Source: a virus (Duplodnaviria; Heunggongvirae; Uroviricota; Caudoviricetes). From it: 64,000 nt of DNA. The first letter of the stretch is position 1. Each line of letters starts with the position of its first letter. The stretch is taken from the IMG/VR virus record IMGVR_UViG_2671180984_000014; one strand, 5' to 3'. Shown one piece after another: positions 2,813 through 36,327 of the stretch. The notes under the pieces were generated by a model. It ran no database searches, was not told where the DNA came from, and worked only from the letters and a program-made list of their open reading frames with translations. The position numbers were made by a program, and so were the translations under genes.

Positions 2813-3652
2813 TCAGGCGTCGCTATCCAGCAACAAATCATCTGCGCGGGTGCGATCAAACGTAGGTGTCGCTTTCACAATAGTGCCACCAGGCGTTGCG
2901 GTGATCGGGGCGCTAATCGACGTAACTCCAGTAAGCGAAGTTGTATCCGAAGTTTCAAACCAGCAGAATGCTTTTTCGGTATCAGAAATCTCGTTCAAAG
3001 TGATCATGTCGGCCTGTTCATTTACAACAACCGACAAATAGAGCGTAAGCCCATCAAACACTATATGCAGTGGCAGTAGAGGCTTTACGAACTGATTAAA
3101 CTTTCTGAGAATTTCTTCTGTAATTGCGGACTGATCTATCGTGCCAGTAATACCCATTGTCCGGGCCAGGTCGTTTATGGGAATACTGATCATCCCTCTG
3201 GAAGTCAGAAACATCTCGCCGAATGTGCCGCCGGTAGTCTCCAATGTGCTTTCTGGTATTAGAACTGTGCCATAGGGATGACGCTCAAGGTCCACCGGTG
3301 CATATATCGGATCCCATAAAACAGAAATACCGTTAAATTCGCGGTAAATTGTCTGGTTTATAGGACGTTCAGTTCCCTTAAAGTGGATCTCATCAAGCCG
3401 CTGTTGTAACAACATCGGAACGGAAGATGAGTCCGAGGTTCTGATAGTAAAGAACTGGCCAAGTTCATTTGTCCTGGTCTCCAGATCCTCCTTGCTCATG
3501 GAGAAAATAGACTTCCGGTTGGTAATTCGCTCCAACCATGGGTCAACAAAGGTGTCCATCATTGACTGAACCAAATCAGCCAATGATTTATAGAGCAATG
3601 ACTTTTGCTTAGCTGATGTAAGCCGGTTATTAAACCAGGAACGCTGCATCAC
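2813..3652 (-). CDS. baseplate/tail assembly protein (279 aa)
   Basis: ORF in tail operon; start overlaps stop of upstream gene by 4 bp (translational coupling). Confidence 0.4.
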   Translation of the reverse strand: MMQRSWFNNRLTSAKQKSLLYKSLADLVQSMMDTFVDPWLERITNRKSIFSMSKEDLETRTNELGQFFTIRTSDSSSVPMLLQQRLDEIHFKGTERPINQTIYREFNGISVLWDPIYAPVDLERHPYGTVLIPESTLETTGGTFGEMFLTSRGMISIPINDLARTMGITGTIDQSAITEEILRKFNQFVKPLLPLHIVFDGLTLYLSVVVNEQADMITLNEISDTEKAFCWFETSDTTSLTGVTSISAPITATPGGTIVKATPTFDRTRADDLLLDSDA

Positions 3653-29554: not shown

Positions 29555-30452
29555 GCACTGGAAAAACATTACTATTTATAAACTTTCTCGTGAGGCGGAT
29601 CTGACCGACTTAGAAGATAAAAAGAAAATGATCCTTTTCACGCCATGCGGTAGTCAGGATATGGCCAAGTTCGGTTTTGTATCGCCATTTGGTGATAATT
29701 CTGAAGTTATCGCTATGCATGGAAATGGTTTTATCCTTGTTGAAGCAAAGCGCGAAACAAAAATTCTTCCCCCGCCGGTTATCCAGCGAGCTATTCAAGA
29801 AAAAATTGAAAAACTTGAGCAAGAACAAGCGCGTAAACTGAAGAAAACAGAGAAGGACTCCCTGAAAGACGAAGTTCTGCATTCTCTTCTGCCACGGGCT
29901 TTTTCAAAGTTTTCTGTTATCCAGGCGATCTACGACGGTTCAACTAAACGTATCTATATCAATGCCAGCGCGCGGCAGGCAGAGGATATGCTCGCGCTTA
30001 TGCGTAAGTCTCTGGGTTCTCTTCCTGCTGTTTCCCTGAGTGTTGAAAATCCCATTGAATTAACGCTGACCGACTGGGTACGTGATGGTAGTGCTCCACA
30101 GGGATTTCAAATGGGGGATGCGGCAGAACTTAAGGCAGTGCTTGAGGATGGCGGTATTGCCCGAGTGAAAAAGCAGGATTTGGGAAGCGATGAAATTTCC
30201 ACACACCTGGAAGCTGGCAAGCTCGTCACTAAGTTGGCACTCGACTGGCAGAACCGCATTAAATTTACACTGGACCATAACTTCAGCCTTACCAGCGTCA
30301 AATTTGCGGATGAATTGCTTGAGCAGAACTCTGATATTGATAGTGAAGATGTTGCGCAGCGACTGGACGCAGATTTCTTCCTGTTGACCAGTGAAATTTC
30401 GTGCCTGGTTGATGCTCTGGTAAATGCCCTTGGCGGAGAGGCTAAGCAGTGA
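29547..30452 (+). CDS. hrdC: RdgC homolog (recombination-associated protein)
   Basis: [16 protein letters not shown]...[15 protein letters not shown]...[30 protein letters not shown] aligns along full length with E. coli RdgC; start set at internal ATG 29547. Confidence 0.8.
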
Positions 30453-33400
30453 AAGAGCTGTGCTATGGATCTGTTTGCAGTGGAATTGAAGCCGCGAGTA
30501 TTGCCTGGGAACCGTTGGGTATGCGTCCGGCGTGGTTTGCTGAAATCGAGCCTTTTCCATCGGCCGTTCTTGCGCTCCGCTGGCCCCATGTTGCCAACCT
30601 TGGCGACATGAAAAAACTTGCCAAAAAAGTCTTGGCTGGGGAAATCGAATCCCCTGACGTGCTCGTCGGGGGAACACCATGTTTTACCGCGGGGCATATG
30701 GTTCTTTGTAAAAATGGCTATAAACCAATAGAAAATGTTTGCCCTGGTGATTACGTAGTCAGTCATCTCGGGCGGTTACAACAAGTAAAAAGAGTTGGTT
30801 CAAAAATAGCTAATACGGGGTTACTTAATGCCGTTGGGCAGCCTTTAGGTATAAGAACAACCAATGACCATCCCTTCCTGGCTGTTCGGTGGAAAGCCCA
30901 AAACACCCGGAAAAATGGCACATATTTTAAGAGAGAGTTGTTGTCTGAACCGGAATGGCGAGCAGCATGTGATATGCCGGGATATCAATGGTGCGCTCTA
31001 ACTAATTTCAATATTGCATTTCCAGATATTTGTTCTCGGTTCTTGTCTGAAGAACAGGCTATGTATCTTGCGGGCGCTTATGTTGGCGATGGATATATTA
31101 GGAGATGGAGAGGTAAATCTAAGAAGGCGGTTGTTTTTGGCATAAATTGCCAGAAATTGAGAAAGTTTCATTGCCGCATACCAGAAAACATATTTTCCGT
31201 GGCAAGCGAAATCCGAGGGAGCATCAAAGTAACCTTGAATGATACGTGTTATGCCAATTGGCTTAATGAACATTTTGGCGAGTTAAGCCATGCTAAGCGT
31301 ATCCCTGCATGGGTGATGTCGCATCCATTGCGTCATGTGTTTTTACAAGGCTATCTTGATACTGATGGGACACCAAGTGGTAAAGCGGGATTTAGAATTA
31401 ATAGTGTTAGTTCTGCGCTTGCTTGGGGCGTTGCGGGGTTGTCACAGACTTGTGGTTATGTTTCTTCGGTCAGCTTTATTGAAGTTGAGCCCAAAAAAGT
31501 GATCGAGGATCGCGTGGTAAATCAACGGAATTATTATCAGGTAACAATCTGCCCGCAGAAATTGTCACGTAAATCAAGATTGGCTCATGGAATGCTTTTA
31601 CGAACAGTCAAAGAGTTTAAATCGGTAGGCCTAGATACTGTATACAACATAGAAGTCGAAGGTGATCATTCCTATATCCTCAATGGTGCGGTGGTCCATA
31701 ACTGTCAGGCATTCAGTATCGCGGGATTACGTGGTGGGCTTGATGATGAGCGTGGCGCGCTAACTTTAAAGTATGTGGAGCTTGCAAATGCAATTGACGA
31801 CAAACGGGCTGAGTCATTTCTCAAACCAGCCGTTATCGTCTGGGAAAATGTCCCAGGAGTCTTGTCATCGGCAGATAACGCCTTCGGATGTTTCCTTGCC
31901 GGATTGGCTGGAGAAGATGTGCCATTTGAACCAGGTGATCGACCTGAATCAGGAAAAAGCAACGCGTTCTGGCGGTGGGATGGCAAAACCGGTTGCCATG
32001 TTCCAAAGTGGCCGCAGTGTGGTTGTATTTATGGACCGCAGCGAAAAGTGGCCTGGAGAATCCTTGATGCCCAATACTTCGGAGTGGCACAACGACGCCG
32101 ACGCGTGTTTGTTGTCGCAAGTGCTCGAACAGATCTCGATCCCGCAACGGTACTTTTTGAGTTCGAAGGCGTGCGCCGGAATATTGCGCCGAGCAGAGGC
32201 GAGGGGAAGGAAACTACCAGATATACTTCAAACATCGCTATCAGAACTTGCGATGATACAAACATAATTGCCATGGCACATGGGCAAGGAGGGGCTGAGA
32301 TAAAAACCGATAATTCGGCACCAACTTTGACATGTAACCATGAAGCACCAATTGTATTGCTCGGCGACGGTAGAATGCGCCGTCTTACCCCTGTCGAATG
32401 TGAAAGGCTGCAAGGTTTTCCTGATTGGCATACGTTGATCCCTACGGAAAAGCGTAAAAAAGTTAATTCAGATGAACTGGCATATCTGCACAATCACTAT
32501 CCAGATTTAAGCGAAGAAGAGGCCGCAATGCTTGCAGCTGACGGACCGCGTTACAAAGCGATCGGCAATAGTATGGCAATACCAGTAATGCGCTGGATTG
32601 GCGATCGGATTACTAAGGCCGTATGTCGGCAGAAAGAAGGAAGTGAAACAAAAGAGCGAAAAGTTAAACCAGCGGCAGAATTCGAACGGTCCATATTCAA
32701 ATGGGCTGGTGGAAAATTTGGTGTTCTGGAACAAATCTTTCGCTATTTGCCAGAAGGGAAGCGCCTGATTGAACCTTTCGTTGGTGGCGGAGCTGTCTTC
32801 ATGAATGCCGGATACCAGGAAAATCTGCTAAATGATGTGAATGCTGACCTGATTAACTTTTACAAGACTCTGCAACGCGAGGCGCATTCACTTATCACTC
32901 TGGCACATCGTTTCTTCCAGGACTACAACACACAGGAAGGATACCTGGCAGTACGGAATGCGTTTAACAAACAAGTCTATGATGATTTACATCGCGCAGC
33001 GGCGTTTTTGTTCCTGAACCGACATTGTTTTAACGGATTGACGCGTTACAACCAGGCCGGTGAGTTCAATGTCGGTTATGGGAAGTATAAAACTCCGTAT
33101 TTCCCATTACAGGAGATGGAAGCCTTCCTCGGTGCGGAAGGGCGGTCTGAGTTTGTATGCGGTGATTTTGCAGCGGTGATTGAAGCTGCCGGAGAAGGAG
33201 ATGTCATCTTTTGCGATCCGCCGTATGAACCGCTTCCAAATACAGAGGGATTCACGAACTATTCCGGTCATGACTTTAAGTTTGAAGAGCAAAAACGCCT
33301 GGTGTCTCTGTTGACGGATGCTCATCGTCGAGGTGCAAAGGTTCTCATTACTAACAGTGGCGCGCCAAACATCAGAGAGCTTTATCATGACAGTGGCTTC

Positions 33401-33490
33401 AGAGTGGAACCTCTTTTTGCCAGACGTTCTGTGTCTTGTAAGGGGGACACTCGAGGTGTAGCTCATGACGTTTTGGGTATATTGCTCTAA
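30449..33490 (+). CDS. dmt: bifunctional DNA methyltransferase: N-terminal C5-cytosine MTase (intein-interrupted) fused to C-terminal Dam-like N6-adenine MTase
   Basis: GTG start overlapping hrdC stop; C5 motifs GGTP|[22 protein letters not shown]; Dam motifs KWAGGK and DPPY. Confidence 0.8.
30680..31702 (+). other. intein (341 aa) with LAGLIDADG homing-endonuclease core inside dmt
   Basis: Begins Cys ([20 protein letters not shown]), block [19 protein letters not shown] and [10 protein letters not shown], ends [21 protein letters not shown] followed by Cys+1. Confidence 0.8.
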
Positions 33491-33497
33491 TAAATTT
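33481..33497 (+). promoter_or_regulatory. C1-type operator, exact consensus ATTGCTCTAATAAATTT
   Basis: 17/17; precedes the tRNA/ban operon. Confidence 0.75.
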
Positions 33498-34162
33498 ATT
33501 AGTGTAATATTACCTCAATGAATCGTGATTTATAGAGCGATTTAGCTGTTAGCCGCGACAGGCGCGGCGGTAAGCATGGCTGGGCCTAGTCCTCCCAGAC
33601 AAACCACCGAGTTGCCAGGTTGACCATGCGCCTAAGTGGCAACGCCGAAGTGCGTTACGAGCGTCCAGTTTGCCCATCTTCGGGTGGGCGTTTTTTTCAG
33701 GGTTTTCGTCATGGTTAGCGACTTTGCGGCGGTTTAGAAACTGACCATTAAAGTAAATGCAAACGATGATCTGATGATGGTAGCGGCCTAAGAAGCCAGA
33801 TGCCATGGGGTATGAGTCGTCCCCCGTCAAAAAATCGACCGCAGAGTGTCCCCGTCTGTGTATTAGGGAACGGGGAGGCACAACAGGTAAGGGCGCTGGT
33901 GTGATTAACCAGATGAACGAGAAGGGGCCATCTGTTGGTCAGCGTCCTTTCCTGTTGCGTTTTCTTTTCAGCGTAACAGCGGTGCTTAACAGCACTTTGG
34001 GTACAGTTCCACGAATTTACGGGTATATCCCGTCATGCTGAAGGCGCTAATCACGCTGGAAGCCAGGGTTATGCATCCCCTGTTACCGAATTGCAGCCAG
34101 GGCGCGGTGCGCCGAAAAGCATACGGAGGTGGAAGCCCTCGCCGGAGACGTACCCGGCAAGT

Positions 34163-34237
34163 GATGGTGTAGCTCAGCGGTAGAGCAGTTGGCTGTTAAC
34201 CAACTGGTCGGTAGTTCGAATCCACCCACCATCGCCA
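34163..34237 (+). tRNA. tRNA-Asn (anticodon GTT)
   Basis: Acceptor GATGGTG/CACCATC, anticodon loop CTGTTAA, T-loop TTCGAAT, 3' GCCA. Confidence 0.8.
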
Positions 34238-34242
34238 CTTTA

Positions 34243-34328
34243 GGGGAGTTAGTCCGTAGGGGTAGCGGGGTAGACTGTAAATCTACTGTCATTGCGACTC
34301 GGGTGGTTCGACTCCATCACTCCCCACC
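34243..34328 (+). tRNA. tRNA-like element, anticodon loop CTGTAAA (GUA, Tyr-like) with long variable arm and irregular D-arm
   Basis: Acceptor GGGGAGT/ACTCCCC, perfect anticodon stem GTAGA/TCTAC, T-arm GGTGGTTCGACTCCATC, ACCA end; D-arm does not fold canonically. Confidence 0.4.
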
Positions 34329-34333
34329 ACATT

Positions 34334-34409
34334 GCCGATTTAGCTCAGTTGGTAGAGCAGTCGCTTTGTAAGCGAATGGTCAGCGGTTCGATCCCGTTAA
34401 TCGGCACCA
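34334..34409 (+). tRNA. tRNA-Thr (anticodon TGT)
   Basis: Acceptor GCCGATT/AATCGGC, D-arm GCTCAGTTGGTAGAGC, anticodon loop TTTGTAA, T-loop TTCGATC, CCA. Confidence 0.8.
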
Positions 34410-35282
34410 ACATAACAGGTAAGAGCATTCTCCCTTATGGGGCCTGGCTTAAATGCATCGAGTGCTCTTACCGTTGTGATGAAGTGCAGATCTTAGAAGC
34501 AACCAGAAGATAAGCATCTGGCTTCACAACATAAACCGCAGGAACGACCAATAAACGGTAGTCCGTATGGAGAACACCCCGTTGAGGAAGAGGCCTGGCC
34601 GGAACCGTAACCGGCGACTGGTAATGTGTGTAAATGGAGCGAAATATGTGGGCGTTTAACGGGATACGGGTTGTAACAGCGATTATTAACGGCGAACTTA
34701 AGTATTCACGTTTCGAGACAAATGAACGTGATGGGAAATGTATTGGTGTGCGGTTAGTAAGAGAATACGCATAACAACTACAACGTTGAGAACACTGGCG
34801 TAACGGGGTCATATCCCAATCTACGAATAAATGTTGCGTTGCCGCGTGACAACCAGTGTTCTCAACATTGTGGTGAATGCACAGGCTGATGTGCCGCAAC
34901 TACAGTAGTGCGCGCTTTGCGGGGCTTGCTACAACCCTGTGTCGGAGTTCAGCACCGACCATCACAGTTTGATTCTCTGGCATGAGCATAACGCTGAAAT
35001 AAGTCCAGTCTGGTGCGGTCTGATCACCCGCCGTTAGCTCCACGAAACGGAGCACGTAACAGGTAAGAGCATTCTCCTGTAACGGGTTCATATCCCAATC
35101 TACAGGTCCACCAAGAATGCTCTTTCCGTTGCGGTGAATGCGGCTAAGCGCACGCGGGGAAATGGTTATATCTGTCCATTATTTCTCCTTGTTTCCACGT
35201 CCACGGTGGATAACCAGCCAAAGGACACCGGGAGGAACCCGGCACCGCAGCTTTTTTATTCGTTAAATAATGGAGTGAGAGG

Positions 35283-35519
35283 ATGCAGAACAATCCGAAC
35301 AAATGTCGAACGCTATGGGTGCGGTTATATATTTATGCCGTCCTCTGTTTGATTGTGTCACTGGTTCTGTATGTTTGGCTTTTGCCAAATATGATCTCAT
35401 CTAACAGCACAATACTTGTATTGTTGGGAGTCCTTCTCGCGCTCATTTACCCGGCTTTCGCAGTAGTCTTTTTTCGTGAAAAAACCAGGAAATTAATTAA
35501 TGAAAAAAACGTTGATTAG
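35283..35519 (+). CDS. small membrane protein (78 aa)
   Basis: Two hydrophobic helices; coupled to downstream lipoprotein gene. Confidence 0.4.
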   Translation: MQNNPNKCRTLWVRLYIYAVLCLIVSLVLYVWLLPNMISSNSTILVLLGVLLALIYPAFAVVFFREKTRKLINEKNVD

Positions 35520-36327
35520 TGCAGCGATTATTTTGGGTTCTTTATGTCTGACCGGATGCGATCGGGTAGAGCCAGGTAACGTAGGGATCAAAGTAAATAA
35601 GCTGGGGGATGATAAAGGTATCGGTGAAGTAGTTGGCGTTGGTCGCTACTGGACAGGCTTGAATACTGAAGTTTATATCTTCCCGACCTTTAAGCAAATG
35701 AAGACATACGATGAGCCGTTCAGCTTCCAGATGAGCGACGGAACAACCATTGGTTACCACATCGGCGTAGCCTACAAGGTTGATCCAGCAAAAGTCACAA
35801 CGGTATTTCAGACCTATCGCAAAGGTGTAGATGATATTACTGATACCGATCTACGCCAGAAGGTTGCAGATGCTCTGAACCGATTAGCCAGCAAAATGAC
35901 CACCGACAAATTTATCGACGGTGGCAAATCTGAATTGCTTGATGCAGCCCTTAAAGACATTCAGGAAGAAATGACGCCAATCGGCATTCAGGTGATGAGC
36001 CTCTCTTATGTAGGTAAGCCAGAATACCCGCCAACAGTTATTGACAGTATTAACGCCAAAGTCACGGCAAACCAAAAAACCCTGCAACGCGAGCAAGAGG
36101 TCAAACAACGTGAAGCAGAGGCCAACATGCTGCGCGCGGAAGCTGCCGGACAGGCTGATGCTATTCGCACAAAAGCCCAGGCCGAAGCTGATGCCATTCG
36201 TTTACGTGGTGAAGCTCTGCGCCAGAACCCCGGTGTTATGGACTTGGAAGCGATCAACAAATGGAACGGTACATTACCGCAGTATATGACCAGTAATACC
36301 GCTGTTCCGTTTGTTCCGGTGAAATAA
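35500..36327 (+). CDS. SPFH/band-7 domain lipoprotein (275 aa)
   Basis: Lipobox LCLTGC; prohibitin/HflC-like core and Ala/Glu/Arg-rich coiled-coil tail. Confidence 0.6.
   Translation: MKKTLISAAIILGSLCLTGCDRVEPGNVGIKVNKLGDDKGIGEVVGVGRYWTGLNTEVYIFPTFKQMKTYDEPFSFQMSDGTTIGYHIGVAYKVDPAKVTTVFQTYRKGVDDITDTDLRQKVADALNRLASKMTTDKFIDGGKSELLDAALKDIQEEMTPIGIQVMSLSYVGKPEYPPTVIDSINAKVTANQKTLQREQEVKQREAEANMLRAEAAGQADAIRTKAQAEADAIRLRGEALRQNPGVMDLEAINKWNGTLPQYMTSNTAVPFVPVK

Follow-up and report, generated by a model that had tools for sequence, protein, structure and literature searches.

A leader module of P1-like phages joins a tmRNA-type tag template to a stretch complementary to host tmRNA and may act as a tag-swap RNA

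Bacteria rescue stalled ribosomes and control protein quality mainly by trans-translation, which is also an antibiotic target. Some phages are known to need it, among them lambda-P22 hybrids and Mu. Phage-encoded anti-small RNAs (anti-sRNAs) are known, for example AgvB and AsxR of enterohemorrhagic E. coli prophages. In one-piece transfer-messenger RNA (tmRNA; SsrA, RF00023), whose tag is ANDENYALAA in E. coli, A86 sets the reading frame four nucleotides further on, and the pseudoknots as well as the tag template tolerate replacement (Miller et al. 2008, PMC2481249). Some natural tmRNAs consist of two pieces that act while base-paired to each other (PMC3985003). Their coding piece, found in alpha- and beta-proteobacteria and cyanobacteria, is a separate RNA with a resume codon context, a short tag open reading frame (ORF) that ends in hydrophobic or alanine residues, a stop codon and a flanking pseudoknot, and it works only in a duplex with an RNA that provides the tRNA-like function. 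Here we analyzed a window of 64 kb (the whole stretch of DNA, 64,000 nucleotides, IMG/VR record IMGVR_UViG_2671180984_000014), which is a P1-like phage, and within it the 665-nucleotide leader at 33498-34162. The leader is bounded by the dmt stop codon at 33490 on the left and by tRNA-Asn (34163-34237) on the right. It contains a module, called module 2 below (33701-33876), in which a tmRNA-type tag template follows a domain complementary to host tmRNA. The parts of module 2 are the following.

33701-33747, + strand: anti-tmRNA domain, complementary to nucleotides 56-106 of host tmRNA, with the seed GGUUUUCGUC at 33701-33710.
33748-33758, + strand: single-stranded linker whose 3′ end is the invariant UAAAU, which puts U at -5 and A at -4 relative to the resume codon.
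33759-33791, + strand: tag template, GCA AAC GAU GAU CUG AUG AUG GUA GCG GCC UAA, read as ANDDLMMVAA plus stop.
33777-33798, + strand: stop-codon hairpin, in which GGC (33785-33787) pairs with GCC (33795-33797) and an outer stem UGGU/GCCA is possible.
33806-33839, + strand: H-type pseudoknot with stem 1 at 33806-33810/33822-33826 and stem 2 at 33816-33819/33836-33839.
33849-33876, + strand: terminal hairpin with a conserved loop, UGUGUAUUAGGGA here and GUGUGAUUAAUAA in most lineages.

The template part resembles one-piece tmRNA in its U(-5)A(-4), its GCA resume codon, its 10-codon AND...AA tag, the stop codon in a hairpin loop and the downstream pseudoknot. U(-5)A(-4) correspond to U85 and A86 of E. 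coli tmRNA (PMC2481249). A degenerate pattern scan of IMG/VR recovered at least 120 loci, and 126 copies were compared. All 126 had 10 codons followed by a stop. Their tags fell into 18 different peptides with the pattern AN[DE]...[AV]A, a single variant having AP at its end; homologous tags are ANDDVVLMAA in ECBP1, ANDNEFKVAA in phiEa2809 and ANDDLMLMAA in ESP2949-1. UAAAU preceded GCA in all copies, the 3′ part of the linker, (U)AAAU/GCAAACGA, being fixed in the search patterns. Only two A's of the linker (in the NNANNNUAAAU form) had been left free in the patterns and were invariant (A50/A51, or A18/A19, in alignment numbering). The tag frame was without indels, although its flanks have many, and the other two frames had stops at variable positions. 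Third-position variation was high, the two C-terminal tag codons using all four third-position bases, and single-base neighbours were synonymous in 12 of 24 cases (12 versus 12 non-synonymous), compared with an expected 22.6%. As in one-piece tmRNA, a predicted frame-setting U(-5)A(-4) is thus followed by a short tag ORF with a hydrophobic/alanine end.

The structures that flank the template were supported by compensatory changes. The stop-codon hairpin was present with at least 3 bp in 92 of 92 unique modules, and its pair 53:64 covaried (GC, AU, CG and UA). Stem 1 of the pseudoknot was 97.6% paired with double-sided changes in four of six pairs, and stem 2 occurred as CCGA:UCGG, CCAG:CUGG, CCAA:UUGG and GUCG:CGAC. 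At least six covarying versions of the terminal hairpin stem were found. In a 36-sequence alignment, 87.1% of the cells were paired compared with 74.5% for shuffled alignments, none of 500 reaching the real value; covariation scored 0.338 compared with 0.146, and sliding of the partners cut pairing to 50% or less. The module therefore matches one-piece tmRNA in having the stop codon in a hairpin loop and a pseudoknot downstream, and an internal equivalent of pseudoknot 1 is unsupported. The best Rfam similarity was to the permuted and beta-proteobacterial tmRNA models: tmRNA_permuted reached 24.1 bits in the window, with a maximum of 39 bits in other phages, against a gathering score of 47, and beta_tmRNA and tmRNA_permuted both aligned to the resume-codon context below threshold.

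These data also bear on the reading of the interval as a decaying relic, in which fragments of a captured ssrA-like gene and of tRNA genes hitch-hike without present function in a recombination-prone tRNA region. The surrounding arrays are indeed mosaic and rich in repeats and degenerate T-arms, and the linker at 33962-34020 is poorly conserved. The compensatory base-pair changes, a frame that is intact in every copy and an identity of 70-88% across otherwise unrelated phage families make this reading extremely improbable.

The 5′ domain of the module is complementary to the part of host tmRNA that covers the 3′ strands of pseudoknot 1, the frame-setting linker, the resume codon and tag codons 2-6. 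With RNAduplex, nucleotides 1-47 of the module and E. coli ssrA 56-106 gave -45.9 kcal/mol (z = -3.5 to -4.1), and four of six other lineages gave -40 to -47 kcal/mol with z down to -5.5. Weaker z values of -1.7 and -2.3 were obtained for two Vi01-like lineages, leaving five of seven lineages at or below -3.5. When 46 lineage representatives were aligned to the ssrA reverse complement (median z 4.5, maximum 10.5), 29 aligned over the full 68-105 (or 68-104), and all but one of the other 17 aligned to part of it. The complementary blocks are (A/G)GUUUUCGUC with GACGAAAACU (ssrA 96-105, tag codons 3-6), GUU with AAC, GCGAC with GUCGC (ssrA 87-91, across the resume codon G90), and UUUGCGG with CCGCAAA and CUUUUUA with UAAAAAG, the latter being 3′ strands of pseudoknot 1. 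In 71 unique modules with differing tags, the 10-nucleotide seed formed on average 9.07 of 10 Watson-Crick pairs with host nucleotides 96-105, whereas the equivalent positions of the module's tag allowed 4.5 of 10; the seed is aimed at the host rather than at the template behind it. None of the other leader segments showed such complementarity to ssrA. The minimum-energy dimer of module and tmRNA in RNAcofold contained a 38-bp intermolecular helix. The target segment was near-invariant in 121 ssrA copies adjoining enterobacterial prophages, which explains why phages of Escherichia, Salmonella, Klebsiella, Serratia and other hosts keep the same 5′ domain. By these measures the module has a complementarity to tmRNA that is collinear, conserved across lineages and better than that to itself or to controls.

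Several other pairings of the 5′ domain were considered. RNAalifold found no consensus internal helix in the approximately 50 nucleotides before the template, though their sequence is highly conserved. An internal pseudoknot 1 was rejected, since the candidate helices CUUUG:CAAAG and UUAUG:CAUAA lay in different registers and complementarity to the host explains them better. An RNAduplex scan of the whole window for partners of the domain was uninformative, being dominated by long spurious duplexes. Two stretches further downstream, 34046-34066 and 34110-34119, are complementary to the anti-tmRNA domain in a non-nestable order and are kept in the P1 group and one lambdoid lineage (L036, at +289). 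Long-range pairing with 34046-34066 was discarded as a general feature because it is confined to P1 and that lineage and its energy is no outlier; the two stretches may mask the seed in cis, mimic the host target or be due to chance.

Our tentative reading of module 2 is that of a tag-swap RNA, carried by P1 and hundreds of enterobacterial phages, which would pair with host tmRNA at the start of its template and substitute the phage template, so that rescue continues; we consider this possible rather than probable. Simple inhibition is its main rival. The module would then be a pure anti-tmRNA inhibitor or sponge, with a 5′ domain that blocks the host resume codon or triggers RNase III cleavage, so that tagging and rescue are shut down and the module's own frame stays untranslated, kept for structural or historical reasons. 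The same complementarity speaks for such an inhibitor, as the predicted duplex takes in the host resume codon (G90) together with tag codons 2-6, and the tRNA-like-domain-only tmRNA of mycobacteriophage DS6A, reported to inhibit tmRNA, gives a precedent for phage interference with trans-translation (PMC4131195; PMC11915505). What inhibition leaves unexplained is the template: its fixed length of 10 codons without indels, the invariant U(-5)A(-4), the AN[DE]...[AV]A composition, the use of GCN codons with all four third bases, the synonymous excess, and the retention of template features in lineages with diverged tags. On balance we regard pure inhibition as unlikely.

The module was found across phages that have little else in common. 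Searched by itself, it matched at least 327 phage records (Salmonella, 100; Klebsiella, 96; Escherichia, 87; then Serratia, Shigella, Cronobacter, Aeromonas and others), which include Vi01, Det7, HK620 and P1, and the position was nearly always unannotated. In a sensitive blastn search of the 665 nucleotides against 50,697 phage records, two separate pieces matched unrelated genomes. One of them, 33701-33894, matched unannotated gaps beside tRNA genes in unrelated phages of the Ackermannviridae (phiEa2809, phiMAM1), the N4-like Schitoviridae (ECBP1, KP8) and the T1-like Drexlerviridae (ESP2949-1), and between families with nothing else in common the identity of the module was 70-88%. Among species-representative bacterial genomes the module occurred in 5 of 185,579; it is therefore phage-borne and no host's ssrA. 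A full-text literature search, which included the tag peptides as strings, returned no description of such an element, a remark in the P1 genome paper being possible. In papers on these phage families, 'tmRNA' appeared in ARAGORN citations only. Two surveys of tmRNA genes that covered RefSeq viruses found complete and tRNA-like-domain-only forms in a few phages and nothing like module 2; both pipelines depend on a tRNA-like domain (PMC4131195; PMC11915505).

A tRNA-like domain was sought with several methods. ARAGORN in tmRNA mode made no call in the window or in 251 loci, while the E. coli control was called. Rfam found isolated T-arms only, and only in other phages, and no tRNA-like domain; none of the lineages showed an acceptor stem with G3:U70 or a CCA end. 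Inspection by eye and with a T-arm regular expression of the flanks from -600 to +1200 yielded stray T-arms and tRNA-like modules, none of them consistently linked to module 2. A complete or permuted tmRNA was ruled out on the ARAGORN and Rfam results. The flanking repeats AGUGCUCUUUCC and GGUAAGAGCAUU were considered as a closing helix like helix P2, and a circular permutation of P1 was considered as well; both ideas were rejected because covariation of the arms showed the repeats to be local hairpins. The 5′ edge of the module is sharp, conservation beginning abruptly at (A/G)GUUUUCG. In T1-like phages a promoter, TTGACA-17-TAGATT, starts transcription a few nucleotides before this motif, so nothing upstream can belong to the module RNA. 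On the other side, an ORF starts about 20 nucleotides 3′ of the module in Cronobacter phage ESP2949-1. With an ORF directly 3′ in ESP2949-1 and transcription starting at the module in T1-like phages, no tRNA-like partner was common to all lineages. In T1-like loci L130 and L131 (about 860-895), the same promoter drives the tag module, a spacer hairpin, an STnc100-like module and tRNAs; its near-consensus sequence implies that the array is probably highly expressed in lytic T1-like phages.

These results distinguish module 2 from each of the described systems. Unlike SsrA, it lacks an acceptor stem, G3:U70, a T-arm and CCA, and an unstructured antisense stretch replaces pseudoknot 1; it also stays below the Rfam gathering threshold. 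Unlike the coding piece of two-piece tmRNAs, it is phage-encoded and not cellular, has neither an acceptor-strand segment nor an upstream acceptor piece (a promoter in T1-like phages or a terminator in P1 lies there instead), and has a pairing surface antisense to the template region of a complete host tmRNA and not to the acceptor and P2 strands of a dedicated partner. The complete tmRNAs of Bxz1-like mycobacteriophages and Bacillus phage G and the tRNA-like-domain-only form of DS6A, which is reported to interfere with host trans-translation (PMC4131195; PMC11915505), are likewise phage-encoded tmRNA derivatives. All of them keep the tRNA-like domain and that of DS6A is without a template; the P1-type module is the reverse of the DS6A form, a template without a tRNA-like domain and with an antisense domain in addition. 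With trans-acting base-pairing small RNAs and anti-sRNAs the module shares a 5′-terminal seed and extended complementarity to a specific host RNA, and it differs from them in having tmRNA, not an mRNA or small RNA, as its predicted target, and in carrying a translatable template of its own. We rate the combination of template and antisense domain as new: it is no tmRNA, because it is without a tRNA-like domain, and no ordinary small RNA.

The same observations weigh on the view that module 2 is the coding piece of a self-contained phage trans-translation RNA, with a neighbouring tRNA-like or T-arm module, or a phage tRNA, as acceptor and with host complementarity as an incidental result of common descent. 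The module does resemble the PK1-tag-PK2 coding piece of two-piece tmRNAs; the arrays hold tRNA-like modules that are not called and T-arm-like hairpins, including that at 34141-34158, and some spacer hairpins hold a tmRNA-type T-arm, GGGUUCAACUCC. Against this stand the negative ARAGORN and Rfam results, the lack of an acceptor stem with G3:U70 or of a CCA end in any lineage, and the lack of a partner common to all lineages, as in ESP2949-1 and the T1-like phages. Moreover, the seed fits the tag codons of the host and not those of the module, which descent alone does not predict. We consider a self-contained system quite improbable.

For the tag-swap reading the following course of events is proposed, on the ground that natural two-piece tmRNAs function while base-paired (PMC3985003) and the phage RNA would do likewise. 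Module 2 RNA would dock on host alanyl-tmRNA through its antisense 5′ domain, opening pseudoknot 1 and masking the host resume codon and template. The intermolecular duplex would stand in for pseudoknot 1, and the phage UAAAU-GCA template would be presented about 11 nucleotides past the end of the duplex, beside the host tRNA-like domain. Rescued ribosomes would then add AANDDLMMVAA and not AANDENYALAA.

Several points weigh against this reading, and three of them, the topology, the modest cofold gain and the position behind a terminator in P1, weigh against pure inhibition as well. A tether between template and tRNA-like domain that consists of a duplex alone is a topology that, to our knowledge, has never been shown to support trans-translation. 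The net gain of the RNAcofold dimer over the monomers was only -6.3 kcal/mol, a value that leaves out the real stability of pseudoknot 1; shuffled 5′ domains had a mean gain of -2.4 (SD 1.9), and 1 of 30 reached -6.7. In most lineages the frame-setting U85 and A86 of the host would be bulged and not paired. In P1 itself, a strong terminator precedes module 2, which lacks its own promoter. A pseudoknot 1-like pairing inside the module is weakly supported, and the same-sense alignment to E. coli ssrA was not significant, for which reason same-sense homology was dropped and descent from tmRNA rests on the organization, the tag peptide and the sub-threshold Rfam scores. Finally, expression as a discrete RNA, pairing in vivo and the swap of tags are steps that we infer.

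Module 2 is one part of a longer leader. Positions 33400-34500 were 99.9% identical to Escherichia phage vB_EcoM-Ro157c2YLVW and, over the shared part, 98% identical to P1; the leader alone was 99% identical to that of P1 and better conserved than the adjoining tRNA-Asn. Phage D6 has only 33669-34237 in common with it. The first-pass annotation had seen no plausible ORF here, and this was borne out. The mechanical ORFs of the interval (110, 78 and 45 amino acids) had no match in a Pfam search, and when 34 distinct P1-like copies were aligned, frameshifting indels at about 33829, 33929, 33933, 33980 and 34012-34015 broke them. A protein-coding interval was ruled out on these two grounds. Upstream of module 2 the following features were located.

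33481-33510, + strand: Oban (Op72a/b) C1 operators with the P1ban and P2ban promoter elements, placed by aligning the annotated P1 record AF234172, at 99% identity, to the window.
33505-33510, + strand: -10 box TAATAT; the transcript start is inferred to lie near 33517.
33553-33647, + strand: conserved, structured 'platform', which at the DicF locus makes up the 5′ part of the dicF precursor, with about 78% identity to an E. coli segment.
33648-33697, + strand: P1-type 3′ small-RNA part, AAGUGCGUUACGAGCGUCCAGUUU, with an intrinsic terminator, at the place where DicF sits in Qin.
33672-33678/33683-33689, + strand: terminator stem found by consensus scan, 7 bp and G+C-rich, with a UUCG loop and U7 at 33691-33697.

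A generic sigma-70 scan did not call the P1ban promoter at 33481-33510. Its position shifts the beginning of the leader, which had been taken to start behind the operator at 33498: the 13 bases 33498-33510 belong to the Oban/Op72 operator and the P1ban -10 box, and for the remainder the statement stands. The dmt ORF to the left (30449-33490, + strand) encodes 1013 amino acids compared with 754 in P1. Within its C5-cytosine methylase part it has a Hint domain (amino acids 77-126) and a LAGLIDADG domain (amino acids 298-361); the insertion is an intein with a homing endonuclease.

The P1 record AF234172 marks a 'dicF-like region' at about 33605-33706 in window coordinates and leaves the rest of the leader unannotated. 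In our blastn search the second of the two pieces, 33553-33647, matched lambdoid phages, and a platform-like segment (about 78% identical) was present in 4242 of 5426 complete E. coli genomes. In the Qin prophage, where the Rfam DicF model scored 76.7 bits, the platform segment lies between ydfC and dicB and ends about 25 nucleotides 5′ of DicF. A pattern scan gave 136 copies of the approximately 100-nucleotide platform, followed by DicF in 72, by the P1-type 3′ part in 29 and by other short terminator-bearing sequences in the remaining 35; the 3′ parts can thus be exchanged from copy to copy. The consensus fold of the platform carries compensatory changes. The DicF model (RF00039) had no match in the window even at E up to 10, and DicF itself was ruled out, the upstream platform alone being in common. 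The P1 cassette is thus of the DicF-locus type, with AAGUGCGUUACGAGCGUCCAGUUU and its terminator in the place of DicF. With the DicF locus of Qin/Kim-type prophages this first unit of the leader shares the platform of about 100 nucleotides and the layout, in which the platform leads to a short RNA that ends in an intrinsic terminator, near the start of an operon under repressor control; it differs in that the DicF sequence is missing, and therefore its seed, and with it its targets, must differ from those of DicF. The cassette is known in kind and had essentially been flagged by the P1 annotators.

The hairpin with a T-run at 33672-33697, noticed at first pass, is the terminator of this cassette; it folded with -12.8 kcal/mol (z = -4.7 versus shuffles). 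Other stems had been noted with it, and stable ones were likewise found: an 85-nucleotide hairpin with z = -3.8 and the 465 nucleotides 3′ of the terminator (z = -3.6), both of which folded better than all of their shuffles (100 of 100 for the latter). It had been suggested from these features that the leader controls read-through into the tRNA/ban operon, and a cis-acting structured leader of the attenuator or riboswitch type would indeed fit a strong terminator about 180 nucleotides 3′ of the promoter and the P1 annotation, which makes the downstream genes dependent on Pban. The covariance-model search proposed as a check did not favour this function. Rfam, including permissive thresholds (E up to 10), gave no riboswitch, leader or attenuator family for the window; the hits were tRNAs, the sub-threshold tmRNA_permuted and noise, and a known RNA family was dismissed on this basis. 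No fold of the leader pointed to an antiterminator, and mutually exclusive terminator and antiterminator structures did not emerge. In addition, the terminator is the 3′ end of a DicF-locus-type cassette whose family occurs in many downstream contexts, and the 465 nucleotides behind it are separately mobile modules with a promoter of their own in unrelated phages. The terminator must lower transcription into the tRNA and ban genes, a side effect common to dicF-dicB in Qin; as a control device it is not demonstrated. Control of read-through as the function of the leader was therefore given up, and we hold a cis-acting leader to be very improbable.

The broader suggestion of a regulatory or processed RNA fared better, in that the interval is structured, non-coding and very likely a source of processed RNA; separate modules take the place of one single leader. 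On this view the interval is a series of RNA modules, not one cis-acting leader, and its transcription comes from the ban promoter, which C1 represses. A polycistronic non-coding RNA array would start at this promoter, the first unit would end at the strong terminator, and the later modules would be reached by read-through transcripts only. The complete explanation, an RNA-gene array that contains a DicF-type cassette and a docking, template-substituting module 2, is our best one, and we would stop just short of calling it probable.

The array continues 3′ of module 2 with the following features.

33877-33961, + strand: long spacer ('H') hairpin of 85 nucleotides with arms CAACAGGUAAGGGCGCUG and CAGCGUCCUUUCCUGUUG, -40 kcal/mol, z as given above.
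33962-34020, + strand: linker, indel-rich among P1-like phages.
34021-34162, + strand: 3′ module specific to the P1 group, with few variable columns, abutting tRNA-Asn.
34141-34158, + strand: T-arm-like hairpin GCCGGAGACGUACCCGGC, which closes the 3′ module and is followed by AAGU.
34163-34409, + strand: tRNA-Asn, tRNA-Tyr and tRNA-Thr, called by ARAGORN and Rfam; the array continues behind them.

The spacer hairpins form a family of long hairpins that stand between the modules of these arrays and have the arms CACAACAGGUAAGRGC... and ...GCYCUUWCCGUUGUG, which covary between lineages; further members lie in the window at 34412-34478 and 35056-35133, 3′ of the tRNAs. Their ends, CACAAC...GTTGTG, recall the ends of integron attC sites. 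In loci L075, L003 (about 3027-3120), L033 and L060, a T-arm with the tmRNA-typical loop GGGUUCAACUCC lies just before the 3′ arm, which hints that spacer hairpins derive from tmRNA or tRNA acceptor-T minihelices. The T-arm-like hairpins grade into canonical T-arms and precede tRNAs or spacer hairpins; they were found in 50 of 92 loci compared with 2 of 92 shuffled sequences. The fold of the 3′ module had a z of only -2.0. Spacer hairpin and 3′ module are probably processing or boundary elements. RNase III processing of the transcript at the long hairpin is a reasonable guess, and RNase P cleavage at tRNA-Asn would set the 3′ end of the 3′ module.

In the arrays of other phages (L010, L014, L099, L103, L125, L061 and L040, about +250 to +600 from the tag; L132, 1190-1375), tRNA-like modules were seen that ARAGORN did not call. 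Each combines an acceptor-like stem, GUUGUGGYG...CRCCACAAC, with a D-arm and a canonical T-arm, and an insert of 60-110 nucleotides replaces the anticodon arm. Within the window, the tRNA-Tyr(GUA) at 34243-34329 (+ strand), between tRNA-Asn and tRNA-Thr, is an extra gene that P1 and P7 lack. Some P1-like IMG/VR contigs carry it, among them contigs with tRNA-Arg(UCU) instead of tRNA-Asn. About 850 nucleotides more of non-coding array (34410-35270, + strand) lie where P1 has plp/upl. They include a GCCGG-N8-CCGGC hairpin at 34598-34615 and two STnc100-like modules, at about 34870-34975 and at 35130-35249 (38 bits versus a gathering score of 47); the Qin region between dicF and dicB has the same sub-threshold STnc100 match. 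The ORF at 35500-36327 (+ strand), a 'putative serine protease' in MH160767, belongs instead to the SPFH/Band 7 family (Pfam E = 1e-30) and has a lipoprotein-like N terminus.

The analysis suggests that phages may block or reprogram the protein-tagging system of their host. If the tag swap is true, no earlier case of tmRNA being reprogrammed in trans is known, nor of a natural tmRNA built from a host piece and a viral piece. With an RNA that is antisense to the tmRNA template and brings a replacement for it, a virus would be taking over a host machine in a new manner; such an RNA would also represent a new class of RNA-RNA regulation and show that programmable tagging has a precedent in nature. 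Should the swap prove wrong, a widespread phage-borne tmRNA-antisense element and the modular 'small-RNA array' organization still stand. The element sits in P1, a much-used laboratory phage, and goes unannotated in families of therapeutic phages (Vi01-like, T1-like and N4-like).

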